NCBI GenBank assembly: GCA_032718475.1
Contig: JAUCBJ010008853.1
Location: forward strand, 3,098-67,097
Origin: Nemertoderma westbladi
Lineage: Eukaryota > Animalia > Xenacoelomorpha
Reading direction: 5' to 3'
DNA length: 64,000 nt
Shown piece by piece: positions 20,561-64,000 of the stretch; within the stretch, counting starts at the first letter, position 1, and each line of letters opens with the position of its first letter. Made by a program: the position numbers and the translations under genes. The notes under the pieces were generated by a model, which ran no database searches, had not been told where the DNA came from, and was given only the letters and a program-made list of their open reading frames with translations.

Positions 20561-20791
20561 CACAGCATTCTTGTAATTTAAAAGCATGCCAATTGTCAAT
20601 TATCTTATCCGTATGTGCCTTGTTCTTTTGTTACTGTAACTATAATTTGCTCCTCTCCTTTCTGTTACAGCGACCTCATCGTTTATTATAATTGAGTCGC
20701 TTGAAATTTATAATAGAGAAGAGCGTGATATACATTAAACTACTGCCACCTGTATTTAATTTATCGATTAATACTTAATTAAGATTTCATA

Positions 20792-33100: not shown

Positions 33101-34961
33101 ATTGAATAACTTCCATTAAAAAAGCGTAAACATACAATGCCAGTTTAAAGAACTTGTTTGGAAACGTTAGTCTGCCACGATTTAAAACATATAGTGAATT
33201 ATCCAATATATAATTTGTCGCAGAGCTAAGCAGGGCATTTTTGCGCTACAAGATTCGACGTGGTTTGTCACCCAGGTATTGAGATAAATATACCAGTTTT
33301 TGCGCTTCGGTTATATACGTTGATCCAATCTGAGAAAGAACCATTTTTTAAATCCAAGATAATCAACGGGGTCTACCTCGAAGGTACGGATCTCCATCTT
33401 GGGCATAGCTAGGCGGTTCTCTAATGCTCGGATGATGCCGACGTCATCCGAACTAGGATGACTAGGAGGGTTATAGTTACTAACGCTTTCTCCCATACAT
33501 GATGGATCGATAAGAGGTGGAGTTTTAATAATGATGCGGTTACGGATTTTCGGGGTGGACGTGAATGGATTATTGGATCGAGGGGTGGCGTCCCATTCCG
33601 AGTTCTTTTCAGGCTTGTACTGGGGAACACTCGGTGCTGTAAGGTTGGAAGGGAGATAGGGTTCCTCATTCTTAAGCGTAACCGGTGGGGGATGGAATGC
33701 CGGTGCTTGCGCCGATAGTGTGGACCGGATAACTGGTGGGAACTCGGGTTTCGGAGGTTTTGCAGCCAGTGGCATAAATGACTTTTCTAATTCCGGGCCC
33801 GGAATTGGTTCATAGTCCTGTTCTATACCCCTTTCCCAGTCCTCGTACAGTTGGAGGTCCCGTTCTATGAGTGCGGCTTCTTAGTCTGCGAGTTTAGCAA
33901 TATCCGCATTCTTTTTGTGAATAAGAATCGCTTGGGCCTCGGCATTTCGTTTATGCTTTTCGGCCTCTTGTTTCCATACCTCGGCCTGTTGTTCGGCCTC
34001 TACTTTATGCATTTCGGCCTCTTGTTTACGTTGTTCCGCCTGTTGTTCGGCCTCTAGTTTACGCATTTCGGCCTCTTGTTTTTGTCGTTCGGCCTCTTGT
34101 TTCCGTATCTCGGCCTGTATTTCGGCCTCCTGTTTATGTCTTTCCTCAGCTAGTACGTCCTGTTCGATCTGTAATTGGACGTATTCGTCCTCCATTCGGG
34201 CTTTAAGGGCCAATGCCCTCTGTTCTCGTAGCTGATCTCGGAGTGGCTGACCCCCTTGGGAGCTGTGGCTGAACCGGATATCTCGCTCCTGGTGCTGGAG
34301 TGCTGGTGCCTCGAGGACCCCGTTCTCTTTTGCTGAACCACAGTCCTGGTGCCGGAGGTCTGCACTGATTCCGCGTCCGCCCTTTCAGTTCTTTTGTAGT
34401 ACTGCTCTTCGTAACCTCTCACAAGGCTGAGGGTCCTCCGATGTTGCTTACGGAACTCTTCCAGATGTGTAACGTGTTCCTCCACTCTGGGGTAGTTTTC
34501 CAGATTGGTTGCGGGGATGAGTTCCTGATATGCCTGTATCATCCGTTCATATCGTTGTAGGATACTTCGGATTTTTTGTAGTTGAGTCTGTATGTCGCTG
34601 AGGGGGGTCTCAACTCCCTTTAGTTGTTTCTCGATGCGGTGATATGCTCGAGTCAGTCCGCCTTTGAGAGCTCCCAGTCAACGGGCCATGTTCTTTACGT
34701 TTGGGACCTCGTTGGCTTCCGAGTCTGTGGGGGGCTCCATTTCATTGGTGTCGGAGACATTATCCATTATCATTCTAAAGCCTCGTTTATTGCTAGATAT
34801 GCGATATCGTAGAATAGTTTGTCGTAGGTTTCGTATTCAGCCTGAACTACCCGAACGGTAATCCTGAATCGTCCCACGTTCGTACCCTGTACTTCGACTT
34901 CAATGTGCCAGATTCCTGGCTCTACTTGGATTATATCAATAGATGTGATCGATACTTCCAT
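30130..34961 (-). pseudogene. gag: gag of element 2, split by a ~2.1-kb insertion
   Basis: Coiled coil, MPKMEIRTF, KLVYLSQYL / AWKTLDKRYGN on either side of the insertion, and zinc knuckles CFRCLGTGH and CAVCNDLRHHTLLH. Confidence 0.88.
31114..33215. mobile_element. Composite AT-rich DNA-transposon-derived insertion in gag of element 2
   Basis: Gag frame resumes on both sides. Repeated TTACTGGGTTTT motifs at 31125-31840, AGTAGCCCCC repeats at ~31860, and a transposase-tail-like LNRGRLTFP peptide at ~33170. Confidence 0.7.
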
Positions 34962-39050: not shown

Positions 39051-39065
39051 GGGCGGGAATACAGA

Positions 39066-39908
39066 ATGTACAGTAGACATAATGTACAGTAGATATAATG
39101 TACAGTAGACATAATGTACAGTAGACATAATGTACAGTAGACATAATGTACGTACAGTAGAAATAATGTACAGTAGACATAATGTACAATAGACATAATG
39201 TACAGTAGACATAATGTACAGTAGACATAATGTACAGTAGACATAATGTACATTAGACATAATGTACGTACAGTAGAGATAATGTACAGTAGACATTATG
39301 TACAGTAGACATAATGTACAGTAGACATAATGTACAGTAGACATAATGTACAGTAGACATAATGTACAGTAGACATAATGTACAGTATAAATAATGTACA
39401 GTATACATAATGTACAGTGAACATAATGCACAGTAGACATAATGTACAGTAGACATAATGTACAGTAGACATAATGTACAGTAGACATAATGTACAGTAG
39501 ACATAATGTACAGTAGACATAATGTACAGTAGAAATAATGTACAGTATACATAATGTACAGTAGACATAATGTACAGTAGACATAATGTACAGTATACAT
39601 AAAGTACAGTATACATAATGTACAGTAGACATAATGTACAGTAGACATAATGTACAGTCGACATAATGTGCAGTAGACATAATGTACAGTAGACATAATG
39701 TACAGTAGACATAATGTACAGTAGACATAATGTACAGTAGAAATAATGTACAGTAGACATAATGTACAGTAGACATAATGTACAGTATACATAATGTACA
39801 TTAGACATAATGTACAGTATACATAATGTACAGTAGACATAATGTACAGTAGACATAATGTACAGTAGACATAATGTACAGTAGACATAATGTACAGTAG
39901 AAATAATT
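39066..39908. repeat. 16-bp satellite (GACATAATGTACAGTA)n, left arm
   Basis: About 50 highly homogeneous units. Confidence 0.98.
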
Positions 39909-42012
39909 TACGATTTTGCGATTTGATAATAATTTGCGATCATCTACTGTATCCGGGAGGATTTACAGGAGGTTGGGGGTGACGTGCAGCTCTGTCTTGG
40001 CCAGAAGGCCGGGATAGAGTTCGCCATCCACAGCCTCAACGACGCCTTCGACAGCGATGATTGCGACGCGGTGTTACAGATAGACGCCACCAATGCTTTC
40101 AACGTTCTAAACCGCCAGGCAGCGATCCATAACATCCGGTCTGTCTGTCCCTCGCTGGCCACCGTCGTCACCAACTGCTACAGTCGCCCCTCACGGCTGT
40201 ATGTGGATGGGGAGTTTATCCTCTCAGAGGAAGGCTCCACACAGGGTGACCCGGTGGCCATGCCGATGTTTGGCGGCTCGATGATGCCACTTATAATCAA
40301 GTTAAGGGAACTGTGCGACATCATCCAGCGTTGGTTCGCGGATGATGGGAACGCGGCAGGGAAACTTGCGGAGCTCCGCAAGTTTTGGGACATTGTATCG
40401 AAAGAAGGTCCGCTTTACGGCTATTTCCCTTCGAAATGCCATCTAACTGTCAAACCAGGGAAACTAGCCGAGGCGGAGGCGTTGTTTGCGGGGACAGGGG
40501 TGGTGATAAACACCGTGGGCCACGAACTCCTGGGCGGCGTTATAGGGAGTGAGGGATTCAGGGGTGAGTTCCTGGACCGGATGGTGGATGAGTTCGCTGC
40601 CCAGGTCGACCGTATCTCCGACATCGCGGCGGTCGACCCCCACTGCGCGTACGCGGGGCTGGTGTTCGGGTTGTCGTGTCGGTGGCGGTACGTCTCGAGG
40701 GTCGTCCCGGGCGCCACCGAACACTTCGCTAAGCTGGAGGAGGCGGTGACGCGGTTCCTCTGTCGCCTCACCAACCGCCCCGCTATCTCCCCGGAGGAAC
40801 GCCAGCTCCTCTCCCTACCGGTTCGCCTGGGAGGTCTGGGAGTCCCGGTAACCAGGGATCTCGACTCCCAATATAGGAACTCCCGGGCGATATGTGAACC
40901 CTTCCGCCAGCCAACCTCCCCCATGATGTCCCAGGTCAGGGAGGACCAGAAGCGGGTGCTGTCGGCGCTAAAGGCCGATACCGCTCAGAGAATAAAATCG
41001 AGAACGGAGGAGGTCAACAGCATTATATCCGTAGAACAACGGAAGTTATGCGAATTAACTTCGGAGAAGGGGGCGTCTACTTGGCTTAACACCAAGCCAC
41101 TGAGTCATCTAGAAACTCACCTGGACAAGGAGGAGTTCAGAGACGCCCTCTGTCTGCGGTACGGGTGGTCGCCGAAGAACCTCCCATCTCGTTGTGCCTG
41201 TGGGGAGCGATTTTCCGCTTCTCATATCCTGTCGTGCCCCACTGGAGGGTTTCCCTCTATAAGGCACAACGAGATCCGAGACTTCGTCGCCGACTCCCTG
41301 ACCGAGGTGGCTCACAATGTGGCTGTTGAGCCAATGCTCCTGCCACTGTCGGGTGAGCAGTTCACCCTCCGATCCACCTCGACCGACCAGCAAGCGAGAC
41401 TGGACGTTTCGGTGAGCGGATTCTGGGGCAACCGCTTCCAGAAGACGTTCATCGACGTCTCAGTCTTCAACCCGCTGGCCGCCACCAACGCCGCCATGAC
41501 GTTGGACGCCGCCCATCGCCACCATGAAGACCGGAAGGCCAGGAAGTATGAGGAGCGAGTGAGGGAAGTTGAACACGGCAACTTCACTCCCCTCATCTTC
41601 ACGGCCTTCGGTGGGATGGCTCCAACCGCCACCCAGTTCGTCTCCCGCCTCGCGCACAAGATCGCCGATAAGCGGGAGATCCGTTACTCAGATAGCGTGA
41701 CCTGGGTGCGCCGGCATCTCAGTTTCGCCCTCCTCCGTTCCTCCCTCCTCTGTCTGCGGGGGTGTCGGTCGGCAGCGCGCCGCCCTGTGCGCTGCAATAT
41801 CGCCGACACCTCCATCCGTCTGACCAACGCAGCAGTGGACACTACCGGTACTATTAACTAACTGCAAACTGAAAACTGCAGAAGACAGGCAAATAGGCCC
41901 TCACTACCCTACTGTACATATTCAAATGTTGTCCAAGTATTGCCGTGTGTATATAGTTTCTTGAGTTATTTTTATAATATAATATACGTTACAAAAAAAA
42001 AAAAAAAAAAAA
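39909..42012 (+). mobile_element. 5'-truncated CRE-clade (restriction-like endonuclease) non-LTR retrotransposon
   Basis: GC-rich ORF, short 3' UTR, poly(A) tail at ~41993-42012, satellite on both sides. Confidence 0.92.
39984..41861 (+). CDS. RT + zinc knuckle + RLE endonuclease ORF (N-terminally truncated; frame open from ~39933)
   Basis: QLCLGQ.AGIE, IDATNAFN, GSTQGDP, WFADD, LPVRLGGLG, CACG..HILSC, RHNEIRD, RLDV..FIDV, RKARKY, FTAFGGM. No stops. Confidence 0.93.
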   Translation: MQLCLGQKAGIEFAIHSLNDAFDSDDCDAVLQIDATNAFNVLNRQAAIHNIRSVCPSLATVVTNCYSRPSRLYVDGEFILSEEGSTQGDPVAMPMFGGSMMPLIIKLRELCDIIQRWFADDGNAAGKLAELRKFWDIVSKEGPLYGYFPSKCHLTVKPGKLAEAEALFAGTGVVINTVGHELLGGVIGSEGFRGEFLDRMVDEFAAQVDRISDIAAVDPHCAYAGLVFGLSCRWRYVSRVVPGATEHFAKLEEAVTRFLCRLTNRPAISPEERQLLSLPVRLGGLGVPVTRDLDSQYRNSRAICEPFRQPTSPMMSQVREDQKRVLSALKADTAQRIKSRTEEVNSIISVEQRKLCELTSEKGASTWLNTKPLSHLETHLDKEEFRDALCLRYGWSPKNLPSRCACGERFSASHILSCPTGGFPSIRHNEIRDFVADSLTEVAHNVAVEPMLLPLSGEQFTLRSTSTDQQARLDVSVSGFWGNRFQKTFIDVSVFNPLAATNAAMTLDAAHRHHEDRKARKYEERVREVEHGNFTPLIFTAFGGMAPTATQFVSRLAHKIADKREIRYSDSVTWVRRHLSFALLRSSLLCLRGCRSAARRPVRCNIADTSIRLTNAAVDTTGTIN

Positions 42013-43632
42013 GACATAATGTACAGTAGACATAATGTACAGTAGACATAATGTACAGTAGACATAATGTACAGTATACATAATGTACAGTAGACATAAT
42101 GTACAGTAGACATAATGTACAGTATACATAATGTACAGTAGACATAATGTACAGGAGACATAATGTACAGTAGACATAATGTACAGTAGACATAATGTAC
42201 AGTAGACATAATGTACAGTAGACATAATGTACAGTATACATAATGTACAGTAGAAATAATGTACAGTAGACATAATGTACAGTAGACATAATGTACAGTA
42301 GAAATAATGTACAGTAGAAATAATGTACAGTAGACATAATGTACAGTAGACATAATGTACAGTAGACATAATGTACAGTAGACATAATGTACAGTAGACA
42401 TAATGTACAGTATACATAATGTACAGTAGACATAATGTACAGTATACATAATGTACAGTAGACATAATGTACAGTATACATAATGTACAGTAGACATAAT
42501 ATACAGTAGACATAATGTACAGTAGACATAATGTACAGTAGACATAATGTACAGTAGAAATAATGTACAGTAGAGATAATGTACAGTAGACATAATGTAC
42601 AGTAGACATAATGTACAGTAGACATAATGTACAGTCGACATAATGTACATTATACATAATGTACAGTAGAAGTAATGTACAGTAGACATAATGTACAGTA
42701 GACATAATGTACAGTATACATAATGTACAGTATACATAATGTACAGTATACATAATGTACAGTATACATAATGTACAGTAGACATAATGTACAGTAGACA
42801 TAATGTACAGTAGACATAATGTACAGTAGAAATAATGTACAGTAGAGATAATGTACAGTAGACATAATGTACAGTAGACATAATGTACAGTAGACATAAT
42901 GTACAGTAGACATAATGTACAGTATACATAATGTACAGTAGACATAATGTACAGTATACATAATGTACAGTAGAAATAATGTACAGTAGACATAATGTAC
43001 AGTAGACATAATGTACAGTAGACATAATGTACAGTAGACATAATGTACAGTAGACATAATGTACAGTATACATAATGTACAGTAGACATAATGTACAGTA
43101 TACATAATGTACAGTAGACATAATGTACAGTAGACATAATGTACAGTAGACATAATGTACAGTAGACATAATGTACAGTAGAAATAATGTACAGTAGAGA
43201 TAATGTACAGTAGACATAATGTACAGTAGACATAATGTACAGTAGACATAATGTACAGTAGACATAATGTACAGTATACATAATGTACAGTAGACATAAT
43301 GTACAGTATACATAATGTACAGTAGACATAATGTACAGTAGACATAATGTACAGTAGACATAATGTACAGTAGACATAATGTACAGTAGACATAATGTAC
43401 AGAAGACATAATATACAGTAGACATAATGTACAGTAGACATAATGTACAGTAGACATAATGTACAGTAGACATAATGTACCGTAGACATAATGTACAGTA
43501 GAAATAATGTACAGTAGACATAATGTACAGTAGACATAATGTACAGTAGACATAATGTACAGTAGAAATAATGTACAGTAGAAATAATGTACAGTAGATA
43601 TAATGTACAGTAGAGATAATGTACAGTAGAAA
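42013..43632. repeat. 16-bp satellite (GACATAATGTACAGTA)n, right arm
   Basis: About 100 units directly after the poly(A) tail. Confidence 0.98.
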
Positions 43633-48128: not shown

Positions 48129-48279
48129 GTGACGTTGCTTGTGGTGATGAAAAAATAATAACCCCTGTCTTTGATTCCTTTTGTTTTACGCGATCATTTC
48201 GTTCTAAAACAATAAATATATTATAAGCCTGATAACAATGCGGTCTTCTTTATTAGATTCCTATTAGATTACTAGATGA

Positions 48280-48861
48280 TAGTGGCAATGGTGGTATTGT
48301 TCTATTGATGAATCCCACTGCACATGCAGCATTGGACAAATTAGACCAAATCTCCAACCGCATCATCCGTTGCCACTTCTCATGTTCTGGAAGACTGGCT
48401 AAGAAGTTTCCTAAGGTGGTTCTGATTGTGTGCTACTCTCCAACTAGTGTTGCCCCTGTAGAGGAGGTGGAAAAGTTCTACCACAATCTACAAGCAGCTA
48501 CTGATGGAGTGGATCAGCATGCATTCTTAACATTCCTTGGAGACTTTAATGCAAGTCTGCATCAATCACCTACATCGCCCTGGGTCTATAGCAATAGTGC
48601 TAACCGAAATTCCGTCCATCTTCAGGATTTTATCTCTGGAAATGGATTGTTTTCGGCTGGAACCCAGTTCAAGAAGCGAACTGGAAAGCTATGGACTCAT
48701 AGTGGACCCAGTGGTCACAAGTCCCAGATAGACCATATTCTGTTTCGTAGGAAATACAGGAGCTCTATGCAAGACTGTAGTGCATTTACACTTCGACCCT
48801 TCTCCAGTGATCACCGCCTTATTGTGGCCAAGGTAAGACTTAGTCTGCGTGTTAGCAGAAC
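48280..48861 (+). pseudogene. RTE-type LINE APE endonuclease, interrupted by element 3
   Basis: ISNRII, VCYSPT, LGDFNA, WTH, QIDHIL, SDHRLIVAKVRLSLR; the frame is cut by the LTR at 48862. Confidence 0.9.
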
Positions 48862-49442
48862 TGTGACGGGATCCGAGAATCCCGATTTATCCGGTGGTTA
48901 TCTTATCTACGCGTCCCCGCCGTGTGTGTGTGAAAAAGAGTTCTTGAGTTGTTGACTGATCGGTATGTATAAATATAGGGTATAATACAATCGAATAAAG
49001 TGTAACACAGTTGATTGATGATAACTAAAGTGTACCGATAAAATAGCTGAAAGATGGTGGTGGCAGTAGACGGTGATAAGAGTTCCCGTTCTGCCCTAAC
49101 TAACTGACTAACTAAAGTGAATGAAATGACACAGCAACTGGTAATATATTGCACTGGTTGGCCGTATTACATTACTCAGTGGATGCCTGCCCCCCATTGG
49201 CTAATAACCCAATTCTCGCCCTCCCATCTCTCTGGGAGTGTTTCCCCCTGCTGCTATCACTATCTCCCTCCCGGAGGTGTAACCTCTGACCCCCGCTGTG
49301 TGTGTTCCCTTGGGGTTTGTCGCCCCGTTTATTGGGGTGATACGAGGTTGATTGGCAATCAACCTCGTACTCCCAATATTGCTTAAAGCTCCTGTTTGGC
49401 CAACTCTGTGTGGGGTGGTTAGCGGAATTGAATACGCTAACA
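48862..49442 (-). repeat. 3' LTR of element 3 (581 bp)
   Basis: TGTGAC...GCTAACA; PPT GGGGGGAG (minus, 49443-49450); candidate CCAAT (~49198), TATA-like (~49145) and Inr. Confidence 0.9.
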
Positions 49443-49730
49443 CTCCCCCCATGCTATCTTCCCGGTGAGAAGATAGCATCCACCTCTAGTGCGCTACAAT
49501 TCCGCTGGATCCTGATCTACTATCGGGTGTGGGGTGGAATTATTTTTTCCGGAGCCGGCTTTCCAGGCCGCTCCCTATGGGTATGATATCGCTACCCTGT
49601 TTTCCTGGCGTCCCGTGTCGGGCCGATCGTGCGCTTCTCTCACACGATTTTTGTTTCCCCAAAACCTTCGCCACTCTAGCTCCACTCTACTCTCACCCTG
49701 ACTCTCCTCTACTTCTCTTCACTCCCTCTC
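49443..49730 (-). repeat. PPT plus 3' UTR block, copy 1
   Basis: Near-identical to 50269-50555. Confidence 0.9.
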
Positions 49731-49789
49731 TTCACTCTTCACTCTTTATTTTATCACGACTTTTAATTCTTTCTTCGTGATCATTGTGG

Positions 49790-50268
49790 AATGCTGTAAA
49801 GAGTTCTGGTGTTATTGATTCTCCGATATGTATAATGTGAGATATATATAAGGGTATAAGGATATAGTATAAAATGGATACGGTATAAGTAATATCTAAT
49901 AATAATGGTGGTAGGCGAGGATGGTCTTAGAAGTCTCCGCTCTACCCTAGCTAACCGACTAACACAATGAGATAACTGAAATAACTGATTACTGTCAACT
50001 GGTTATATTGCACGGGTTGGCCTTGTTACTGTACCTAGCCGGTGCCTCCCTCCCATTGGCTAATATCCCTGTTGGCGCCCTTTGGAGTGTTTCCCCTCAC
50101 TCCTGCTATTCTCCCTCGGTCAGGGGTTTGGCCCCTGACCCTTATTGTGTGTTCCTCCTTCCCATTTTATTGGGGTGGCACGAGATTGGGTATCCAACCT
50201 CGTGGCCCCCAATATTGCTTAACGGCTTACTTTATGGGTTCGTGTTAGCGGAATTGGATAAGCTAACA
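49790..50268 (-). repeat. Internal, diverged, U5-truncated second LTR of element 3
   Basis: Colinear with ~48930-49442 but clearly diverged; ends GCTAACA with its own PPT. Confidence 0.85.
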
Positions 50269-51468
50269 CTCCCCCCCATGCTATCTTCCCGGTGAGATGA
50301 TAGCATCCTCCTAAAGTGCGCTACAATTCCGCTGGATCCCGATCTAGCATCGGGTGTGGGGTGGAACTATTTTCTCTCGGAGCCGGCTTTCCAGGCCGCT
50401 CCCTATGGGTATGATATCACTACCCTGTTTTCCTGGCGTCCCGTGTCGGGCCGATCGTGCGCTTCTCTCACACGATTTTTGTTTCCCCAAAACCTTCGCC
50501 ACTCTAGCTCCACTCTACTCTCACCCTGACTCTCCTCTACTTCTCTTCACTCCTGCTCTAACCCTCGGACCTCCTTGTCCCTCACTCTGCCTCTTACTCC
50601 TCCCCCCCCACACTTGAATTGCACCCGCACTCTCTTCGTGCTATCACTCGACCCCTATCTCAACCACTCACTCCTGGCGAGCCTCACCCCCCTCCTGTGC
50701 CGTCGCACTCAAGAAGTGTGAAGTTGTCCAGCATCTCGTTTGTCATAGTCAATTGTTCCCCAGTCCCAGTAGCTAATTGGAAAAAGGTTGTATGACTATA
50801 GTACTTACTTTGATTGTATTTTCTTGCTAAACTAATGATTGTTTCGAACGTACATACTAATTGCACTTTTCAATTATTTAAATTATTTGAATTTGTACTT
50901 AGGAGTTCGCACGTCTCACGTGGTGCCTTCCAGGCATACCACATCGAAGTCTTAGTTCGTTCCACCTGTCTTTGGGAACCACCTCAACTCTTTCCCTCTG
51001 TCGTCCTCCTCCCTTGGTCGTTTCCTGGCCGCTGCCGCTCCTTTGGTCTTATCTCCCTTCAGGCTCCTGACCCTCGCCGTCACCTCTCTACTAATCCCGG
51101 TCGTTGACTCCTTGGGCGCTGGTGTTATTAGCTCCCGGTATCGCTTCGCGGGTGGCCCCTCCGAGTGGCCCTGTTGTTTCCCCCTGGTGGCGTCCCATGG
51201 GATCACTTTCATCGCCCGCGGCACATGCTCCGCCAAGAAATCTCTGAACTCCTGTCCACCTGTCCAAATACCTCTGCGTATTTATCACCACGGCATACGA
51301 CGCCGCCGTCGCTACCTCCTGGTAGGTAAACGGAAGTCTCCGTTTGATAATCTCCAAGTGGGCCTCCTGGTTGATATTGAAGAAGCCCCACCGGAACTCC
51401 TGGGCCTTCATACGTTGCCGAGTCATGGCCCCGAAGTTGGCCCACTCCTCAAAGATCCTAAACTTATC

Positions 51469-53499
51469 TTAGTCATCCATCCAGTCGCACTGGCGTCCGT
51501 AGTGCCCCCAGAAGCTGCACTTCGAACACCGGTTGTGCAACCGTGGACATGCCCCCATCCTGTGGCACGACTCGCGGCAGTAGAGACAACTAGTCCCTTT
51601 CTGGAACCGGTACAAACAGCTCCTTTCCTGGTGGGTTTGCCTCCCACAGTAATCACAGCCGAGCACCAATGTCTCCCGCCCCTCGTCGTCTTTCGTCCCA
51701 AGCGATCTCCGCGGTCTGTGGAGTCGCTGGTAAGCGAACTTCTGGACGTTAGTGTCCCTGTCCACGTCGATCTCCTCGCCCCTCCCGGGCATCGTCTCAC
51801 CGAATACTACCCGTGGTGCCGTTCCCGGTTGCTCGCCCAACCTGATGGTGCTCCCCGCGAAATCCATCGCCGGCTCCTCATGCACCCAGGCCCGCTTGCT
51901 GGGTCTATCCCAGAAGGCCCTCGCCCCACTAGCCGTCACCACCCTCCTGCTAACCCAGTCCGTGTCCGAGTGGCCGATTCTCCCGATGGGCGGCATCTCT
52001 CCAAACTCGTCATCATCCTCGTCCTCCTCTGGGAGTGGCTCCAACCCCGGTATCCCGGTGGACCCACTGTGTCCCTTCCCGCCTTGGCTCTCGCTCGTGA
52101 CTTTCCATCCTTCCAACTCCCCTAGCCTCTTTAGCGGGTGATCGCCCTCGGCGCCCGCTGGTATGGGCATCATCTCCAATCCCGATGTCGCCTGTTTCGG
52201 TGATCCCACCATCCACCCTAATTCTCGCCCTAGAGACTCCCCCGAACTCCCTGATGACGTCCATCGAAGTTCGTCTAAGGCCGCCTGTTCCTCGAAGCCG
52301 TAGCTCTGCGCTCTAGCTTCTTCCTCCCTTTCCTCTGCCTCTCTCCTTTCATGTCTAGCGATTTCTTCCAATCGCTTCGCTTCTCGTCTATCCGCCTCTA
52401 GCTGCTCCCATCTCTGATATGGCGTATCTACCTCCCCGTCTACCAGATGTCGGCAGTTATAGTACACCGACTCGCCCTTCAGCCCTGGGAGGTCTACTAG
52501 ACCCTCGAAAGCCGTCTTGAAGGCTCTTCTGTAGCTTCGGGGTGATCCCGATAGCAGGAATGCTGTTGGTTCCCTCTCGATAACCACGGTCATGAATAGG
52601 TTAAGCGAACCCATCATTATCCAGTCCTCCTGTAGGATATATCGCTTCTGATATACCTTTATCGCTCCTCTCTGGAATTGATACACCTCTTGTTTCCCTG
52701 GCCTTTTCCCTGGCGAGTTCGCCAACTCCACTCCGTACTCCTCTCTGAACTTACTCCAGTCCATAGGTTTGTGACACACGAGCCCCATTAGCTGGCCCAT
52801 CGCCACCGCTCCACAATGGCGTGAGTTCTCCACTAGTCCCAACCCGTCTGGTGTTGTCATAGCCACGTAGACCGTCTGCATGTCCAGAAGGTTGGGGGTG
52901 TCCGGACTGATGATTCTCTCCGCATCGTCGCAAATCGCCGATCCCACTTTCGTCCTCGACTTCTCTCTCACTAGGGTTTGCACTGCCTTCGGCAACCGGT
53001 TCAACTTCGGCCCGTCCTTCTTCCCATACGTCCCTAGATCGAATAGGAATATATCTCCATTTGGCGCGCCCAAATTTAGGAGTATGGTTCTGGCCGACCC
53101 CGCCGATCCTCTCCTCGAACCCTCCTCGTCTTCCACGGTCCCCTCATCGTCTAGGATCATGTATCCTCCTCTGCTGACGGACTCTACGAACCTCTTCCAA
53201 TCCTTTCTCGGTAGCTCTCTTGCGTACTTCGGAATCCCGAACTTCGCTTCGTCTCCTTTCACCACATAGTGGAAATGCTCAAAGATCACGTTGTGCAGCG
53301 ACGGCGTCCCATAGGTCCCGACCAGCCGCTGTTCATGCACCTCCCTGAAATGGTCCTGTAGCGCTCGCGCCTTGTGACCTCTCTCTAACCGCTCGTAGTA
53401 TCCCCTCGTCTTCTCTTCCGGATGCCTCTCGGTGAAATCCACCAGTATCTCCTTTCCTCCTAACTCCACCTTTCTCTTTCGGACAAGCTTCCCTGCCAT
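51469..53499 (-). CDS. Accessory ORF: DEDDy-like 3'-5' exonuclease + coiled coil + triple zinc knuckle (676 aa; the frame continues past the stop to 51091)
   Basis: ExoI ILDDEG, IFLFDL, LPKAVQTLV, ExoII KVGSAICDD, LLDMQ, ExoIII QKRYILQED; C-terminal CDYC..H..C, CLYC..H..C, CSKC..GH..C. Confidence 0.8.
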   Translation of the reverse strand: MAGKLVRKRKVELGGKEILVDFTERHPEEKTRGYYERLERGHKARALQDHFREVHEQRLVGTYGTPSLHNVIFEHFHYVVKGDEAKFGIPKYARELPRKDWKRFVESVSRGGYMILDDEGTVEDEEGSRRGSAGSARTILLNLGAPNGDIFLFDLGTYGKKDGPKLNRLPKAVQTLVREKSRTKVGSAICDDAERIISPDTPNLLDMQTVYVAMTTPDGLGLVENSRHCGAVAMGQLMGLVCHKPMDWSKFREEYGVELANSPGKRPGKQEVYQFQRGAIKVYQKRYILQEDWIMMGSLNLFMTVVIEREPTAFLLSGSPRSYRRAFKTAFEGLVDLPGLKGESVYYNCRHLVDGEVDTPYQRWEQLEADRREAKRLEEIARHERREAEEREEEARAQSYGFEEQAALDELRWTSSGSSGESLGRELGWMVGSPKQATSGLEMMPIPAGAEGDHPLKRLGELEGWKVTSESQGGKGHSGSTGIPGLEPLPEEDEDDDEFGEMPPIGRIGHSDTDWVSRRVVTASGARAFWDRPSKRAWVHEEPAMDFAGSTIRLGEQPGTAPRVVFGETMPGRGEEIDVDRDTNVQKFAYQRLHRPRRSLGTKDDEGRETLVLGCDYCGRQTHQERSCLYRFQKGTSCLYCRESCHRMGACPRLHNRCSKCSFWGHYGRQCDWMDD

Positions 53500-53974
53500 C
53501 TCTAACTCTCCTCAATCGCTCACCTGTAAGGTGGTGCCTTGCCAAGGCGCAGTACAGATGAGTGATAAAGTTAGGATGGTCTGTACAGTTCGACAATGGC
53601 CTATCTCTTACTTAACTTGAGTTTTCGCCTAATTTTCCCTACTTAATTTCTAAAACTGCTAAATTGTACCCTAAATTGTAATTTTGTCCGCTACTTTAAT
53701 TATGTTCCAGAATATTTTTCCCTACTGTTACCATAATTTGTTTAATTTCTACCTTTTATTTTTATTTTTAATCTAATTCAATCCTACTACTGTGTTACTA
53801 CTTCTGCCAATGGATTATTTTACTTTATAATCCACACTCTGGCCTATTTTGTGGGCTTGTGCAGTACAACAGTATGCGTCGTGTGGCCTACACGATTTAT
53901 CCAGCTGTACTCACGTGCCCCCCTCTCGCTACTCACTACTAACTAATATCTATATTATATATATACCCTTCTAC

Positions 53975-54680
53975 CACTAACTTCTAACTAACTTCTACTA
54001 ACCGGTACTACGTACCCTCTTACTAACTTCTGACTGACTTCTACTAACCAGTACTACGTACCCTCTTACTAACCTCTAACTAACTCCTACTAACCGGTAC
54101 TATGTACCCTCTTACTAACCTCTAACTAACTCCTACTAACCGGTACTACATACCCTCTTACTAACCTCTAACTAACTCCTACTAACCGGTACTACGTACC
54201 CTCTTACTAACCTCTAACTAACTCCTACTAACCGGTACTACGTACCCTCTTACTAACCTCTAACTAACTCCTACTAACCGGTACTATGTACCCTCTTACT
54301 AACCTCTAACTAACTCCTACTAACCGGTACTACATACCCTCTTACTAACCTCTAACTAACTCCTACTAACCGGTACTACGTACCCTCTTACTAACCTCTA
54401 ACTCTCTCTCAACTAACGGTACTACGTACCCTCTTACTAACCTCTATCTCTCTCTCAACTAACGGTACTACGTACCCTCTTACTACTAACTCTTACTAAC
54501 TAACGGTACTACGTACCCTCTTACTACTAACTCTTACTAACTAACTAACGGTACTACGTACCCTCTTACTACTAACTCTTACTAACTAACTAATGGTACT
54601 ACGTACCCTCTTACTACTAACTCTTACTAACTAACTAATGGTACTACGTACCCTCTTACTATTAACTAATTATCTAACTA
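53975..54680. repeat. ~46-bp tandem array (GGTACTACGTACCCTCTTACTAACCTCTAACTAACTCCTACTAACC), ~15 units
   Basis: Direct repeats with a gradient of unit variants, between pol and the accessory ORF. Confidence 0.95.
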
Positions 54681-54812
54681 TCTGCCTACTTACTCTTTCT
54701 TTTCTTTTCTTTTCATTTCTTTATTTATTTTTATTTTTAAGTGTGGGAAGGGCGTCTTGCCCTCAATCCCACCCCCCTCAGTCCAAAACTTGGACGATTA
54801 AACTCTACTCGT

Positions 54813-57800
54813 CTAAGGTGCTCCCTCTAGTAGGCAGCACTTCCCTACAGCCCTCCTGTAGGTCTTCCTATCTTTCGCTCCTATCTTACCACCTATCCGC
54901 ACTTCTACCGATCGGACTCTTCCGTCCTCGCCGGAGTAAGTGCCCACAACTCTCGCCAACCGCCATTGGTTGTTGATGATGGTATCGTCCGTGACGATCA
55001 CCAGATCACCCTCCTTTAGCTCTCTATTCGTATCCCTCCACTTGCTTCTCCTATGGAGCGTGGGTAGATATTCCTCGACCCACCTCCTCCAGTACTCTGC
55101 GCTTATTGCCTTAGCGACTTTCCAACTCTGTCGGGAGTGTATATCGTCTGGGTCTACACCCCACATGTCGATGGTCGCCGGCCTCTCCATTAGAAAGTGA
55201 CTGGGCGTCAGCACATCTAATGACTCTGGGTCATCATTTTCTGGATATAGCGGTCTGCTATTAATGATACCCTCACATTTTGCTAGTACCGTCCTTAGTA
55301 CGTCCTCGGTAACCATGTGGGTGTTCATCAACTTCGTCATCAGATGCTTGGAACTACCCACGAGTCTCTCGACGCATCCTAGAGTATGCGGAGCATACGG
55401 CGTCCTCCTCTCCCACTTCACCTGTTGTCTTCTCATGGCTGCCCTGACTTCCTCCCCTTCCAGGATATCCAAGGCCGCTGCCATCCCATTCTCTGCCCCC
55501 ACAAAGTTGGTTCCGTTATCGGAGTATATTACTGCGATCGTCCCACCTTTGCGGTCTCTGAACCTTTCTAGGGCATTAATGAATGCCGATGCGGTTGCAT
55601 CTTGGGTGAGTTCTATCCCTACCGCTCGCGTGTTGTTACATACGAAGATAATACCGTAGCGTTTCTCCGTGTGTCGCATCACCTTAATCTTTATCGGCCC
55701 GAACATATCCACACCGCAGTGCGTGAATGGCGGGTCATGTTGTCTCACTCTGCTGGCCGGTAGTGGCACCATCTCCTGTATGGCCCGCTCCTTCTTCGTT
55801 CGTCGGCAGGTCTGGCACTGCCCCACTACTGCCTCTACCTTCTTCCTTAACTGTTTGACCCAAAAGGTCCTTCGTATCTCCGTGAGGGTTCGGTTGGTGC
55901 CCCCATGCAATATCGACTTATGGGAGTCCCAGATGATCTGGTGGACTATCGGCGATCCATTAGGGATGATGATGGGCTTTGGCGGAATGATAATACTGTT
56001 GTTACTCAACACCCTAGAGTTCATTACTAAGATCCTGTCATCATTGAGTTGTGGCGACAGCGCGATCAGCTCACTGTCCCGTCGGAGATGCTGTTGTCTA
56101 CCGACGCATTCCACCTTGTCGCTGTAATTCTTTCTCTGTTCATAGCGGATAACGGCTTTGGCCGCTCCCTCCAGATCGATGGTTGTTCTAATTTTTACGT
56201 CTTTGCCGACTCCCTTGAGGAAATCCCCGAAGGCTCTGCAGTACGCCACTAACTTCTTGGTCTTGTACCAACTAGAGCTGTAGCTAAGGAGTTTGTCCGT
56301 CGGGTTATCGCACAGTTCTTCCGATTTTAGTTGCACGTCCCTTATCTCCCTCACCATCTGGCTATATATTTCCTCACCTTCTGAATCTCCTCCCTCTTCC
56401 TCTAACGCTACTTGCTCTGCGCCCGGGTCCACCTTTCTCATCGGCGGCCAGGCTGTCTTATCATTTAGTAATTGCGGCCCATGCTGCCACAATACTTCCT
56501 TCTTAAAGAAAGTGTGGCATGCCACGCCCCTCGATAACAAGTCTGCTGGGTTCTCGTCCATTGGGCAGTAGTGCCACCTTTCTAACTCTGTGGTCGCCCT
56601 TATTTCGTCCACCCTGTTTGCGACGAATATAGGGTATCTCGTCCTTTCGTTATGTAGCCAACCAAGCACTACCATGGAATCCGTCCAGTAGTGTGTTTCC
56701 ACTATGTTGGGAATAGCGCCCATCAAGTAGGCTGTGGCCCTAACTCCTAACCTCGCAGCTGTCAACTCGAGTTTCGGAACTGATGCTGAATCTGGTGGCG
56801 TCGACTTCGCTTTGCTGAATGCGAGTCTGGGCTTGTGAGCCCCCTCTCATTGTACTAAGTAGAGTGCCGCTCCGTATGCCTCTAATGATGCATCGGAAAA
56901 CATGTGTAGATCCAGATTCATCATGTCCCCATCCGGGAAATACACGCGTGGCATGCTGTATGTTCCCATCTGCTCTAAACTCTCTGTCCACTTACACCAC
57001 TGCTTGCTGATCTCTTCCGGTACCTCTGTGTCCCACTCGTCCTTTAGTTTGTATACTCTCTTGAGTATCTGTTTCCCCGTGACTAATAATGGGGATGCTA
57101 GGCCTAGGGGATCGTATATCCTTGCTATGTACGAAACATAGCCCCTCTTTGTGTGGATGTCTGCGCCCTCCTGATTCAACTGGTATTTCAACTTGTCTGT
57201 CTCTCGGTTCCACACGATCCCTAGTGCCTTCTGTTGGGACTCTACTCTCTTGTTCGCCATGTCCTGTCCCTTGGCTGTCGTGGGATTATCCATGGTCGAC
57301 TCTGGCCTCCTGTCCTCTATGGCTTTCATGAACTCTTGCGAGCTGGATTGGAACTTGGTTAGGTTGAACCCGGATCCTTTTAGGATGTCGCGAACCTCGC
57401 ACCCCGTATCCAGTAGTTCCTTAACCGTATTTCCAGACTCCATCCCGTCGTCTACATAGAAGCCGCGTCGAATCATATCAACGGCTTTGTCGCTGAATTT
57501 ATCTTCCTTCCCTTCTACTGTGTCTCTTACGGCCACAGTCGTCGTAAATGAAGACGACTTGGCTCCCATATTCTGTACTACCATCTTATACATCGGTATG
57601 GTCGACGGTTCCTCGTCGCCGTGTACCATAGAACGTCGCTGTCGCTATCCTCTTCCGTTACACGGACTTGGTTGAACATGCCTTCGATGTCGCAGGTGAA
57701 GGCGTGTTTCCCGTTCCTGAATCTAAGTAAGACCTCTATCCCTGAGTTGTAGATATTGGGACCCTCCAGCAGATAATCGTTTAGGCATTTGCCGTTGGTC

Positions 57801-58850
57801 TTAGCTGATGCGTCAACTACCATCCGCAGTTTACCTTTCTTCGGGTCTAGAGCCACGTGGAGTGGCAGGTAATAGGTCCTGTCCGTGTTTGGTTCGTCGA
57901 CCGGTAGCTCTACGGCCCATCCTTTCTCGACATACTTCCTAATCGTCTTATGAATGTACTCATTCTTTTCGGGGCTCCGTTTTAGCGTCTGCTTCAACTT
58001 ACGAAGCCTCGTGAGTACCATTCCTCTGTTGTCGGGTAGCGGTAGCTTCGGTAGCTTCCATACCATTCCTATGGTATACCGCCCCTCGTCGCACCTCATC
58101 GACTCCTTTACGCTCTGTAGAGCCTGTTTATCTTCTACCGAGGTTCCGACCCCGGTCTCTTTTAATCCCTCAAAATCCTGCCTGAGCAGTCTCCTGAGCT
58201 GCTCCTCCGCTCCCTCATCTCCCATCTCTCGCATAGTTCCCGCGAACATGCAGCCTGATGTCTCCGACATCCTAAATGGTATCTTGCTCTTAATTGGGCC
58301 GCTCAGCGTCCACCCGAATGGTGTTAAAATCGCCACCGGGTCACACTGCCTGTCTTCGCCGAAGACCGTTTGCATTCTCTCGTGGGCCGTCGGGCAGTCC
58401 ATTCCTACTATAATGGATACCTTCCTAACGTCCACCTCTGGGATTGAGAAGTCGATACTGTCCAGGAATTTATATTGTTCGACCTCGATGTTGGTTGGCC
58501 GCCTGGCGTTGATATTTATCGACTCTATCACCTGGATGGGGTCGATGGTCGCCCCATAGTCGCATCCTGGTGCTATCGCTGCTATCGCGCACCGTCCGGT
58601 CCTCATCTCCAGGACCTCATCTTTGCTGGAGATGGTTGTTACCGCCATTCTACTTGGCCTCGTTCTCAATCCTATCTCTTCGGCCACCCAGTTCTCGACT
58701 AATGTGAAGGCTGCTCCACTGTCGACCAGCATCAGTGTGGTCACTGATCGATTGCCTTCCCCGATCACTCGCACTGGTACTACCCCAAGTAGTACCGTTC
58801 CTCTCTTCTTTGCCCCTACGGTGCTCGTTGCCATCGTCTGACCTTTACTT
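54813..58850 (-). pseudogene. pol: pol of element 3 (PR-RT-RH-IN), a few frameshifts
   Basis: MLVDSGA, CDIEGMFNQV, FYVDDG, HMFSDAS, WTDS, HGG..CQTC, GVDMFGP, SDNGTNF, GCVERLV. Breaks near 57640 and 56850. Confidence 0.95.
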
Positions 58851-60352
58851 TGACCGAACTTAATTGGCGTTTCCTTGCATTGGTTGGCTCTATGTCCACT
58901 CATCACACATCGTGAGCAGATTTCATTTCTTCTCGCGTATTCTACCTGATCTTCCCTGGGTAGCGCTTGCCAGTACCTGCAGTTCATGGTCTGATGAAGT
59001 GCATTTGTGATGTAATTGGCATTTGCTCTTTGGGTTGTAGCCGTCCTTATAAAGTGCGTTGCATATCGCACTTATGTTTGTACCAAAGTCCCTACTATTC
59101 TTATTGTTTGGGTTCGGCCTACTGGGCGTGCTGGGGTTATGTTTATTTGTGTTGTTATTTTTCCCCTGTCCGCTCCATGATGTGGTCTTACCCCCGGCTA
59201 CTTGTGGACTAGCAGTCCCCTGCGTTGCTGCGTACGGCAGTGACTGTCTGAGCTTTGGCAATGCGTTCGACGCGTTGTGTTCTGGTTTCGGTCTGTGGTA
59301 ATCGGTCTTTGGTCCCTTTCCCAGGCTATCCTCGCTATAGACTGGGTCTGTTATTAATTCGGCTTCATAGTTCAAGAAGCTCGACATTTCTTCTAAACCC
59401 GGTTCCGCACCCTTCTTATCTCGAGTGGTGAAAGCGATTTTCCTCCACTTATTACGCATCCAGATCGGCAGTGCCTGTGCTATCGTGGTGATGTTGTTAG
59501 ACGCGTTGAGTTCGTATGGTGCGTCTAGCGTCTTTAGTACGATTAGCGCCTTCTCAACCTTGTTCGCAAACGTCTTTATGCTAACGGGATTATCCTGTAG
59601 GCCACCCGATGTTATACCTCTCAGGGTCTGCCGGATGATCTTGGCCGGGTGCCCGTACTCCCTGTCTAATGCCCGCCATGCTGTCGTGAAGCCGCCCTCG
59701 ATACCCTGGTATTGCCTCACGATATCGTATGCTGGGCATCCTGTATATACTTGTAGATATTTTAGGCACTCCGCCTGCGTCAAGTTCTTTGTTAGTATTT
59801 CGTTACTATACATGCGCCGAAACTGTAGGTATTCTTCCGGCCTACTTCCATCGAATTTGAATGGTTCCACGGGTGGTAACTCGATCCTAGTTTTTAATGC
59901 ATCGATTAATGTAGCCATTCCCATCGCTTGCGCTTCCAATGGGTTCGATGGATGCCATATAGGTTCTCCCATTGGGTGCGGTCCGTTCGTCCTGTCTGAC
60001 GCTTTTCTTTGACTTATATCATTGGGGGTAGCGGCCCCCTGCATATTTTAGTGTCGCACGATCTATTCTTATCCCTATTGGGGTATATTGTTGATATTGT
60101 GATGGGGGAATGTCACCCTGCCCCCCCCCCCCCCCCCACCGGTATGTTTGATACTGGGGTTGATGTTAATATATTGGGGCCCATACACCTATCCACAATA
60201 ATTCTCCCCTCCCCTGGGTATATGTTATGTCCTTGCATGCTGTAGTCATACTGCTGTGCTGGTACCGGTATAGGCCTATCCACTTCTGGCCTACCTGCCG
60301 GTATATACTCCGCGACTTCCGGGTTTAGTCCCGTCGTCCGCGCTATCCTATT

Positions 60353-61064
60353 GCTTACATTATCTCTCCCAGCATGGCCTATGGTATGTGGGGCGAGACA
60401 CGCAGTCGGCGAGCCTTGGCATACGGTTCATATAGGGCAAATGGGGCATGTCCATCTGTCTGTCTGTCTGGCTGTCTGTCTGTCTGGTAAATGTTTGAAC
60501 GCGAATTTCTCTGCATCGCTGGTTCGGAATTGAACCAAACTTAGTAGGTAAGTAGTATAGAAAAAGTTTAGAAAGTTTGTAAAGTTTGGTGAAAAATCAT
60601 GCAGTCTGACGTCAGCTACGACAGATTATGTGGTTTTTAGAAAATGTTAAATTTCTCGGGAAGGCCTCATTTTCCTGAGCTTAAATTTTGGTGGCCTGTA
60701 GAGAATCATGAAGTCTATCTTTTACGAAATTGAAAAGTTAAGACATTTAATTGGGGATCCGCTAGAGACTCAGAAGTAATGACATAGGCCTACCGGTACG
60801 GTACTGCTGTACAGTGCTGCACTGGTAAGTACGAAATTGCAGAATAACAATTTGACACCACCTAGCGGATTAACATATGATTGTATATCGAATGAATACA
60901 TTTATAGCATGGGATATTGGGTCCAAACTAGACATGCCCCATTTGCTCTATATGAACCGTATGCCAAGGCTTGCCGACTACGTGCTGCGCGAAGTCCCCA
61001 CGAACGTGTGCAGTAAGGCCTACAGTATGTCCTGCAGTCTGTATGTGTCGCTCGGGATCAAAGT
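60353..61064. mobile_element. Helentron/DINE-1-like non-autonomous insertion in gag of element 3
   Basis: Removing it restores RRLNRIA at a TT site. ~49-bp inverted repeats (~60404-60452 and ~60931-60979) and a (CTGT)n microsatellite after the first repeat. Confidence 0.65.
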
Positions 61065-61799
61065 TTAACCTTCTCGAATAATCCTCCCCGCGGCTACCGT
61101 ACTCTCGATCGCTAGGTAGATCCCGTCGGGAAGTTTCTCTTCGACCCCCTCTACTGCTCTCGTCCTCGTACCGGTACATCCCGTACCCCCCTCTCGACGC
61201 GTAGTACGCCTCGTCAGGTCGCGTTTCTCCGGGCCGACGGCAATCTCCCGAAGTTCGACCCCACTGACTCTCCGTCTCCATCTCTACTACCGACGGCTCG
61301 CTGTCCGTCCTCGCTCTCCTGTCGTTCGCGACGACACTTCTTCTACTCTCTTCCCTTCTTCTCTCTGTAGTGCAGTATCCCCGGTCATGAGATCTCTCGT
61401 CGACCTCCCGGTTAAACTCCACTGTTCTTCTTCCCTCTTCTGATGGGCTCGACGCTTCGTCGCCTCGCCCTCTCGCGACGTCAACCTGTCTCTCTCTGCT
61501 CGATCGCACGCCGCTGGGGATACTCGCAATCCCCCTACTATTCTCCATCGCCGGGTGCTGCGGTTCACCTAATTCGCCCCGCGCATTGTCCGCCGACGCC
61601 TGTGGGGCATTCTTTCCCCCCCCCCTCTCGCCGCTAATCTCTCGTTGTGGGGCTCCTATAGCCCTCCCCCCCCCCCCCCCCCCCCCCCCGCTCGCCACCT
61701 ATCACTCCACCGCCTCTTACTTCACTTCTACACCCCTCTCTAGTCGACACACTAACCCTACTGCGGCTGGGTCTATTCACCCCCGCCTCTCCCTCTACT

Positions 61800-61985
61800 A
61801 CTGTGTGGCCTACCAGGCCCGCCACTTCCTGCCTACTAACTACGTGGCCTACCAGGCCCTCATTGGGTTGACTCAACCCCGCCACTTCCTGCCTACTAAC
61901 TACGTGGCCTACCAGGCCTTCATTGGGGTTTCTCACCCCCACCACCCCCTGCCTACTGACTACGTGGCCTACCAGGCTCTCATTT
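61800..61985 (-). repeat. 60-bp coding repeat in gag (NEGLVGHVVSRQEVAGL...)
   Basis: Three to four copies of ACGTGGCCTACCAGGC-containing units. Confidence 0.85.
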
Positions 61986-63814
61986 GCCGGGCTGCCTGCG
62001 CTTGCCGCGTTTATATTAATAGCACCATTACCAGTATTATCTGTTAAATCAATTAAATCCTCCAAATCAATTAAATTATTTTGCACGCCTAAATTAGAAA
62101 CGGGATTATTTTGTTCGTTCGAAATAAGATTATTTGAATTATTTTGCGTAATTATATTATTTGAATTATTTTGTAAATTCAGATTTAGATTATTTGAATT
62201 ATTCCCTACGTTTATATTATGAATGGGTCGGATTTAAATTACTACCATCGGACGAAATGTTATCTCCTGCAATGAAAGTTTGATTAGGGTTATCCACTAC
62301 GGTACTATTAATATTAACGTCCTCTACTGTATTATTATTATTACCCCCCCCCCCCCCCCCCCCCGCCCGCACGGTCACACCAGTCCTGGGTCTGTCGTGC
62401 GGTCCCTGTAAGTGGGGCATTAATAAACGTTTCCCTAACTCCTGGCTCCTCGTAAATACTCGAGCCAGCCTCGCTCTCTGACAGCCCCATCTGCGCCAGT
62501 TCCAGTCTGCGCCTCTGCTTGACTTGATATTGCATAAGCCCCCTCAACCGGGCATGCATATTATCTCGCACACGCTTCCCCGTTGCCTCTCTCTCCCAGT
62601 CCTCCCGCATACTCTGCTCGGCAATTCCGCCTCTCTCGCAACTCTCTCCAGTCGTCTCGCCTCGCGCTCTTTTCGCTCACTCTGCTCTCTCGCCTCACGC
62701 TCTTCACGTCTATTCTGCTCTCTCGCCTCACGCTCTTCTTGCTCCTTCCTTTCTATCCTCCCTATTTCCTCGCACTCCTTAAAACTTCTCGCGACCTTTT
62801 CGGCTCTCTCTCTGTTCTCTCTAGCCAGTTCTTTCTCCTTCTCTATTAACGCACTCTCTTCCTCTAACTGTCTCTCTAATTCTCTCTGGTCTAGCGCCGC
62901 CAGATCGAGCTGGCACGCCAGATCTATTTCCATCACCCGTCTTACTTTCGTGGAGGATGTAGCAGACTTATCGGTCGCGATGGACTCCCTCCGCCTTCCC
63001 GTCCTACTAACTTTCCCCCGCCTCCCGGAATTTTCTCCGACCGACGAGACCGAATCCTCGGGGCTAACCTCGGATTCGCCCTCCTGCGGTCCCCTCCAAC
63101 CCACTAATTTTATTCCCCGGGCATCGACTAAGTATGGCCCTATGTACACTACGCCAGGCTCCATACCCCTACATTCCCATAGTTCAAACAGTTCGCTGGC
63201 AACCCCTCTCGCTCTCTCATCGGCTAGTTCTCCCTGCCCAAAGCGCACTAAGTAATCAAAATGTTTGTTCGACTCACCTAGCCGCTTCTCTAGCTTCACC
63301 TGGTCTATCTTGGCCCCTCCTTTGGCTTCTCTTAGCTGCTTCCGGGTCGCGGCGTAGGCTCGTCGGAGCCGGTCGCTGACCCCGACGTCCTCGTCGCCGA
63401 CGTCTCCTCTATCCCTCCGTGTCCGGCGTCGTACCGGCGGCCCCACCGTCGCCGTTCCGGTGGGCCGTCCGTCGCCCTCGGCCTGTGGCTGGCCGGCGAC
63501 ATCGGCACGTCGACCGCCGCTCGTGTGTCGACTCGTCTCTCCCCTCTCTCGACTCGCTCTCTCGTTGTAGACGGCCCCCCTCCGTTTGGATTGCCGGATC
63601 GCCTATGGTCGACGAATCCGGCGTCGTGGGTCGGTACCGTCGCGTCGCGGCCTCGCGGATCGTTAGGTCGCTGTCCGGGGTCCGCGGCGGTGTCGTCTCT
63701 CCTTCTCGACTCATCTTTTGTCTTTACTTGAGTCGGTGGCTGGCAGTCAGTTCAGGCAATTGATCTTGTCACTACGGATCTTATCACTTAGGGCAGCTGC
63801 TTGGTTCTTATCAC

Positions 63815-64000
63815 TGTGACGGGATCCGAGAATCCCGATTTATCCAGTGGTTATCTTATCTACGCGTCCCCGCCGTGTGTGTGTGAAAAAGAGTTCTGGA
63901 GTTGTTGACTGATCGGTATGTATAAATATAGGGTATAATACAATCGAATAAAGTGTAACACAGTTGATTGATGATAACTAAAGTGTACCGGTAAATAGCT
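63815..64000 (-). repeat. 5' LTR of element 3 (partial)
   Basis: Matches 48862-49048. Confidence 0.95.

Follow-up and report, generated by a model that had tools for sequence, protein, structure and literature searches.

What is a nuclease-like gene doing in the place where some retrotransposons with long terminal repeats (LTRs) carry an envelope (env) gene? The question is raised by a 64,000-nucleotide stretch of the Nemertoderma westbladi genome (GenBank assembly GCA_032718475.1, contig JAUCBJ010008853.1, positions 3,098 to 67,097 of the forward strand; the window in what follows), in which a BEL/Pao element on the minus strand has a third open reading frame (ORF3) downstream of its integrase. 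Our analysis indicates that residues ~90-310 of the ORF3 product very probably form a member of the WRN/EXD2/Mut-7-Nibbler branch of the DEDDy 3'-5' exonucleases, fused to zinc knuckles, and that the element family keeps this domain under purifying selection. What the gene does for the element is a matter of more tentative argument.

An initial annotation, made from sequence alone, had placed a 676-amino-acid ORF downstream of the integrase and ahead of the 3' LTR, on the pol strand, and the frame is indeed found at 53499-51469 (minus strand), beyond the integrase stop at 54813 and with the LTRs on its 3' side. The span given for it was right at 53499, but its other limit, 50952, takes in a 125-codon continuation (51468-51091) as well as an ORF in another frame. 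ORF3 shares its strand with gag and pol, is flanked by the integrase stop on one side and by the polypurine tract and LTRs on the other, and begins with an ATG in a strong context (-3 A, +4 G). Its parts are as follows.

51469 to 53499, minus strand: ORF3, open in this copy from ATG to TAA, 676 amino acids (ORF list).
52564 to 53232, minus strand: DEDDy-branch 3'-5' exonuclease domain, predicted, amino acids ~90-312 (Atlas features, hidden Markov model [HMM], hhalign, alignment and a structural model guided by the alignment).
53151 to 53143, 52926 to 52924 and 52641 to 52627, minus strand: putative exonuclease motif codons D117 and E119, D192, and Y287 and E291, respectively (alignment).
52264 to 52419, minus strand: charged, likely coiled-coil helix, amino acids 361-412 (62% E/K/R/D/Q; coiled coil from composition).
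51487 to 51657, minus strand: three CX2CX4HX4C zinc knuckles, amino acids 615-671.
51091 to 51468, minus strand: 125-codon in-frame continuation that follows the stop, codon 677 (reading frame; most other copies differ at the stop site).

The three CCHC-type knuckles that had been annotated are all present, at amino acids 615, 638 and 658, and their region matches Pfam zf-CCHC_4 (E 0.025) and zf-CCHC clusters of the ESM Atlas (0.87). The annotated coiled coil holds as a charged segment, its coiled-coil nature being suggested by composition alone. An acidic low-complexity linker lies between the charged helix and the knuckles. The N-terminus is basic, and a basic patch at amino acids 7-10 (53470-53482) resembles a nuclear localisation signal. 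We considered and rejected env as the identity of ORF3: the best 19-residue hydropathy is 1.08, which leaves no membrane segment in ORF3, and the frame contains no N-glycosylation sequon. ORF3 is therefore not an env gene, in agreement with the earlier reading that it lacks transmembrane env features, and the basic N-terminus likewise speaks against env.

Conventional searches gave no help with the identity of the domain. Word-index searches with amino acids 1-330, with amino acids 580-760 (the stop entered as X) and, at E 10, with the isolated domain, all length-limited, returned no homologs of ORF3; a HMMER search of amino acids 1-330 against 1.84 billion representatives found none, nor did phage and plasmid tblastn or scans of viral and metagenome contigs. 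The family assignment comes instead from more sensitive comparisons. An ESM Atlas feature search with amino acids 80-330 placed 24 of 30 hits in the PF01612 set; the best PF01612 cluster (50% of members) scored 0.94 with 176 of 256 features in common, and the top three hits (0.94-0.95) are unnamed eukaryotic clusters. In calibration, 4-10 of 100 shuffled proteins attain 0.9. Two HMMs built from bacterial PF01612 proteins, from 9 WRN/EXD2-like and 17 DEDDy sequences, scored ORF3 at 4.2 and 5.6 bits, respectively, at amino acids 136-198, and both scores exceed those of 600 of 600 shuffles (300 global and 300 local). With an 8-protein NrnC/RNase D/PolA profile and a 3-protein DEDDh profile, ORF3 does not rise above shuffles. 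The best solved relatives of the nine-protein profile are WRN, Mut-7/Nibbler and EXD2. Additionally, hhalign gave E values of 6e-4 and 8e-4 (probability 28% and 24%) over a span from strand 2 to ExoIII, and in a 35-row alignment the columns of D117, E119, K184, Q284 and Y287 are invariant and that of D192 nearly so. The ExoI D-x-E (D117, E119) and the ExoII Asp (D192) recognised in the initial annotation are thus recovered, but its ExoIII needs revision: where the family has Y-x3-D, the alignment gives Y287-x3-E291, with the Tyr retained and a Glu at the Asp position. As aligned, the motif is D-E-D-E(y) and falls outside the strict definition of ExoIII.

Structure prediction, which had been proposed as a check, gave a divided answer. 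Guided by the DEDDy alignment, AlphaFold produced a model with a predicted local distance difference test (pLDDT) value of 78 that is compatible with an RNase H-like fold (Z ~14). Its top Foldseek matches are Nibbler (E 6e-7), EXD2, RICE1 and Exd1, with Z of 13-15 to WRN, RNase D, NrnC and Pol I, and giant-virus 3'-5' exonucleases also match. Over all the comparisons, the sequence-based ones included, we take an RNase H-like DEDD fold to be very probable.

Several observations weigh against the assignment. Searches of Pfam and of PDB sequences do not detect the exonuclease domain, the ExoIII Asp is replaced as described, conserved Trp, Gln and Ala columns of the DEDDy alignment differ in ORF3, and the count of conserved columns is marginal, being equalled by 9 of 200 shuffles. 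Every sequence test is weak taken singly (4-6 bits; hhalign probability 24-28%). AlphaFold without an alignment gave pLDDT 35 and no fold match. Because the DEDDy alignment biases the fold, matches of the guided model are circular and indicate compatibility only, and they do not tell RNA from DNA enzymes. The absence of any Pfam, PDB or database match and the circularity of the confident model also favour a view in which the domain belongs outside the DEDDy exonucleases or ORF3 is a separate or passenger sequence. Against that view, four partly independent methods agree on one family and on the same residues, and the copies of the element, to which we now turn, provide further evidence.

Contigs from four public DNA runs, which represent no more than three samples, were compared over 50560-53870, where 7009, 4559, 4668 and 57 contig pieces were placed, many of them 80-95% identical; the family with ORF3 is a many-copy one. 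The ORF3 stop at codon 677 differs in at least ~99% of the depth in three runs and in 84% in the fourth. Since other copies differ there, this stop is a lesion of the present copy or its lineage, and since the frame stays open for 125 codons more, ORF3 in the family is longer than 676 codons. The indel differences listed, 12 of 65, are all outside ORF3. Scoring of 32 coding differences (among 40 of 833 rows) gave 20 non-synonymous and 12 synonymous, which is no test of selection in the family because these differences are mostly private to this copy. Selection was read on 52600-53170, using 40 of 66 difference rows and excluding 3 rows (52705-52712, one misaligned contig). Here 20 of the 26 segregating differences in the exonuclease domain are synonymous, where 33% would be expected for transitions (p 7e-6, with a ratio of roughly 0.15), whereas non-synonymous changes make up 8 of the 11 that only this copy has, as under neutral decay. 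The comparison across copies called for by the initial annotation thus came out in favour of a maintained gene, and it is the 20 synonymous to 6 non-synonymous segregating differences that indicate purifying selection.

Codons 117, 119, 192, 287 and 291 show no non-synonymous variant among these 40 of 66 rows, with one synonymous variant at D192; D117 and E119 are near the edge of the compared stretch. This bears on the proposal that the domain is a pseudo-nuclease, binding RNA or serving as a decoy without cutting, like EXD1 or Egalitarian. Glu291 keeps that proposal in play and makes catalytic activity uncertain; the other divergent conserved columns fit it, and the guided model has Exd1 and Egalitarian among its structural matches. 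The retention of D117, E119, D192 and Y287 with an acid at 291, and the lack of replacements at their codons, speak the other way, and we regard a non-cutting domain as improbable.

Is ORF3 truly part of the element? Its codon usage correlates at 0.73 with that of its own pol; the correlation does not exceed 0.38 for any of four others, namely two further BEL copies, a LINE (long interspersed nuclear element) and a host gene. ORF3 is bracketed by neither a repeat nor poly(A) at this locus, and contig cover continues from ORF3 into both flanks without a common end point. A separate nested insertion, which the initial annotation had named among the outcomes that would overturn it, was considered and is rejected on the codon usage and the absence of a flanking repeat or poly(A). 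ORF3 is thus supported as a resident gene of the BEL/Pao element. Two facts pull in the opposite direction: the linkage of ORF3 to pol is seen in this copy only, no listed contig spanning 50560-53870, and this copy has a rearranged 3' end that contains two unlike LTR units. With purifying selection, codon usage, continuous contig cover and the lack of insertion marks set against them, a passenger or non-DEDDy origin is the least probable of the readings that we considered.

The carrier itself is a BEL/Pao element, as had been annotated. Its pol pieces match Peptidase_A17 (E 2e-29), Integrase_H2C2 and DUF5641 (E 4e-25) in Pfam and its gag piece matches DUF1759 (E 5e-10), which places it in BEL/Pao (Belpaoviridae); the domain order is protease, reverse transcriptase (RT), RNase H, integrase, and Peptidase_A17, DUF1759 and DUF5641 are Pao-specific. 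The remaining parts of the element are the following.

63815 to 64000, minus strand: inner end of the 5' LTR, the remainder lying beyond the window (repeat comparison).
63770 to 63814, minus strand: leader without a TGG transfer RNA (tRNA) site, complementary to two 9-nt LTR blocks (49099-49091 and 49081-49073 in the 3' copy).
58923 to 63714, minus strand: long gag region in several broken frames, with DUF1759 at 58923-60047 (ORFs, Pfam).
56847 to 59071, minus strand: pol, comprising protease, RT and RNase H, in pieces (stop and frameshift; ORF list, Pfam).
54813 to 56846, minus strand: pol, comprising the end of RNase H, integrase and DUF5641, with the integrase stop at 54813 (Pfam).
53884 to 54712, no strand assigned: 46/45-nt tandem array within the spacer between pol and ORF3 (repeat search).
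49732 to 50277, minus strand: polypurine tract (50277-50269) and diverged LTR-like unit A (50268-~49732), 66% identical to LTR B over 405 columns.
48862 to 49450, minus strand: polypurine tract and 3' LTR B, 581 bp, TGT...ACA (49442-48862; repeat comparison).

The spacer between the integrase stop and the start of ORF3 is 1.3 kb, and the integrase-to-LTR distance is 4.5 kb. The gag and pol genes of this copy are interrupted by stops and frameshifts, and the copy is decayed. The 5' LTR end is 97.9% identical to the end of LTR B over 189 columns; because LTR B thus matches the LTR at the window edge, the element is more than 15 kb long, as compared with 4.2-10 kb in the profile of Belpaoviridae by the International Committee on Taxonomy of Viruses (ICTV; PMC8742986). 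The N-terminal region of gag is unusually long at ~3.7 kb (60047-63714), with 33-nt, 60-nt and Asn-rich repeats, and holds a 54-nt inverted repeat pair (60399-60452 and 60931-60984). LTR B is preceded by GGGGGGAG, so that a polypurine tract and an LTR of the BEL/Pao form (TG...CA, 0.2-1.2 kb) are both present. The 3' end runs from the untranslated stretch through the first tract and unit A to a further copy of the final ~290 bp of the 3' untranslated region, which is followed by another tract and LTR B. In this double 3' end (48862-50559) the untranslated stretch is repeated at 91-97% and only the second LTR matches the 5' LTR; it looks like a recombinant of two subfamilies. A 29-nt near-perfect hairpin stands directly before each polypurine tract (49451-49479 and 50278-50306). 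The element also interrupts the EEP endonuclease ORF of a plus-strand LINE (48257-48861).

The leader begins with GTGATAAG. Its fold-back onto the LTR has a predicted energy of -34.7 kcal/mol, with 0 of 1000 shuffles as good, the 3' LTR standing in for the 5' LTR. The probable start of transcription is close to the LTR blocks that pair with the leader, whose own first block occurs twice. The ICTV profile of Belpaoviridae describes an 18-nt tRNA primer-binding site (PMC8742986), while the leader here has no tRNA-type primer site, judged on the missing TGG and the LTR pairing; we take this as a variant and not as grounds for exclusion from BEL/Pao. The family is apparently self-priming via the leader fold-back, and our literature search returned nothing on self-priming in BEL/Pao.

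These features give room to a role for ORF3 in the replication cycle, whereby a nuclease packaged by its knuckles would trim the 3' ends of the element's own RNA or complementary DNA, for example the fold-back self-primer to its duplex edge, or would remove RT mismatches. The leader without TGG and its LTR pairing accord with this, the knuckles are nucleocapsid-like, and WRN-type enzymes are generally known to act on DNA ends. However, an exonuclease requires a prior cut, and no feature ties the nuclease to the fold-back; Tf1 makes its primer cut by RNase H. The two-LTR BEL locus L153, which has no room for ORF3, also lacks TGG, although its self-complement is a weak one (10 nt, low complexity). 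Processing of the 3' ends of element RNA has been suggested for the ORF3s of bdelloid rotifer elements by Rodriguez et al. 2017 (PMC5408684). Overall we consider a replication role unlikely, if less so than a pseudo-nuclease.

We tentatively favour, at somewhat below an even chance, an accessory nuclease that trims RNA 3' ends and so opposes silencing of the element by host small-RNA or RNA-surveillance pathways; given the exonuclease identity, such an anti-silencing role comes close to an even prospect. The preference stems from the fact that the nearest host branch acts in small-RNA pathways and that comparable cargo is carried by elements whose priming routes are unrelated. Host Nibbler acts in small-RNA pathways. 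The same is stated for mut-7 and EXD1 in PMC5408684, which also describes similar ORFs in both LTR and Penelope-like rotifer elements. Judging from this dual occurrence, the job of such ORFs may be independent of the priming route. Under the anti-silencing reading, ORF3 would be expressed from its own, probably spliced, message, for which an acceptor-like AG near 53525, upstream of ORF3 and with a weak pyrimidine tract, and the strong start context are candidate signals. The zinc knuckles would bind RNA, the charged helix may mediate oligomerisation, Glu291 would serve as the last metal ligand, and trimming of RNA 3' ends would then blunt host silencing. In the fullest version, the 15-kb, self-priming BEL/Pao family would possess an active DEDEy Nibbler/Mut-7-like exonuclease whose knuckles target host PIWI-interacting RNAs (piRNAs) or small interfering RNAs (siRNAs), so that the element would encode its own enzymatic suppressor of small-RNA silencing, with recurrent capture of 3'-5' nucleases in the env slot; this version is on balance doubtful.

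Is such a gene found elsewhere in BEL/Pao? A metagenome scan by integrase motif yielded 80 distant BEL-like loci, several of them redundant and at most 33% identical in the best alignments (~33% for pol of this element). Neither an ORF3 homolog nor a DEDDy match occurs in any of the 80. Only 18 of the 69 loci with an integrase end have at least 2.5 kb downstream. The 15 loci with two LTRs leave 0-785 bp from integrase to LTR, one having an alternative repeat at 2460 bp, as compared with 4.5 kb in the present element. On this evidence, ORF3 is an addition specific to its lineage. A second BEL/Pao-like element in the window (~26000-34700, minus strand, broken) has no ORF3-like frame after its integrase.

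How does ORF3 compare with known systems? Env-bearing Belpaoviridae such as roo, Tas, Cer13 and Atlas likewise have a third gene after gag-pol and before the 3' LTR; there it is env, whereas here no membrane protein is encoded. Among cellular enzymes, WRN, EXD2, Mut-7/Nibbler and EXD1 resemble the ORF3 domain in motif order and predicted fold (for WRN, Z 14.4 and a root-mean-square deviation of 3.2 over 173 residues, with the guided model), but identity is 8-17%, and ORF3 differs in two insertions, the ExoIII Glu, the knuckle fusion and the retrotransposon carrier. Trypanosoma brucei RNase D (PDB 7C42 series, 'CCHC-type domain-containing protein'), among the structural matches, also combines a DEDD exonuclease with a CCHC module. 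It is a cellular enzyme, and its likeness to ORF3 is one of architecture, with no evidence of a direct relationship.

The closest parallels are the DEDDy ORF3s of bdelloid rotifer elements, to which the initial annotation had correctly pointed. Juno and Vesta are Ty3/Gypsy-like. As described by Rodriguez et al. 2017 (PMC5408684), DEDDy ORF3s occur in the LTR elements Juno and Vesta and in Terminons, with a DEED motif and no demonstrated activity; they have neither coiled-coil nor transmembrane domains, and their evolution does not clearly depart from neutrality. The same source calls DEDDy nucleases in retrotransposons previously unreported, which is repeated in PMC6431247 and PMC5718144. The rotifer frames, again from that text (PMC5408684), share with ours the placement as a distinct ORF3 that follows pol and takes the env position, the DEDDy type and one altered acid. 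In contrast, their carriers are not BEL/Pao (Terminons are Penelope-like) and their motif is DEED versus D-E-D-E here. Compared by description, the charged helix, three knuckles and purifying selection are found only in the BEL/Pao ORF3. Our literature search, which covered the accessible text of the BEL/Pao survey PMC3118150 and of PMC9094657, PMC11662393 and PMC3315495, found no BEL/Pao exonuclease; Repbase, GyDB and supplements were outside its scope, and an earlier mention is possible. Exonuclease cargo is thus known from rotifer elements, while its combination with BEL/Pao was not found described.

With ORF3, BEL/Pao would join the rotifer elements as a second LTR superfamily that carries an exonuclease gene in place of env, here with another architecture and with evidence of purifying selection. 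Repeated capture of 3'-5' nucleases would imply a task outside gag-pol. If small RNAs are destroyed or mis-trimmed, this would constitute a testable counter-defence in the conflict between transposons and piRNAs; if primer maturation is true, it would bear on tRNA-independent priming in BEL/Pao.

The window holds further elements. A third BEL/Pao-like element (7921-12030, minus strand) has a 1370-codon gag-protease frame that ends early and only partial pol matches. A host-like C2H2 zinc-finger array ORF of 513 amino acids with 84/168-nt repeats lies at 20783-22376. A non-LTR reverse-transcriptase ORF (39933-41861) is located inside a 16-nt tandem array (39061-43630), which suggests a satellite-targeted insertion.

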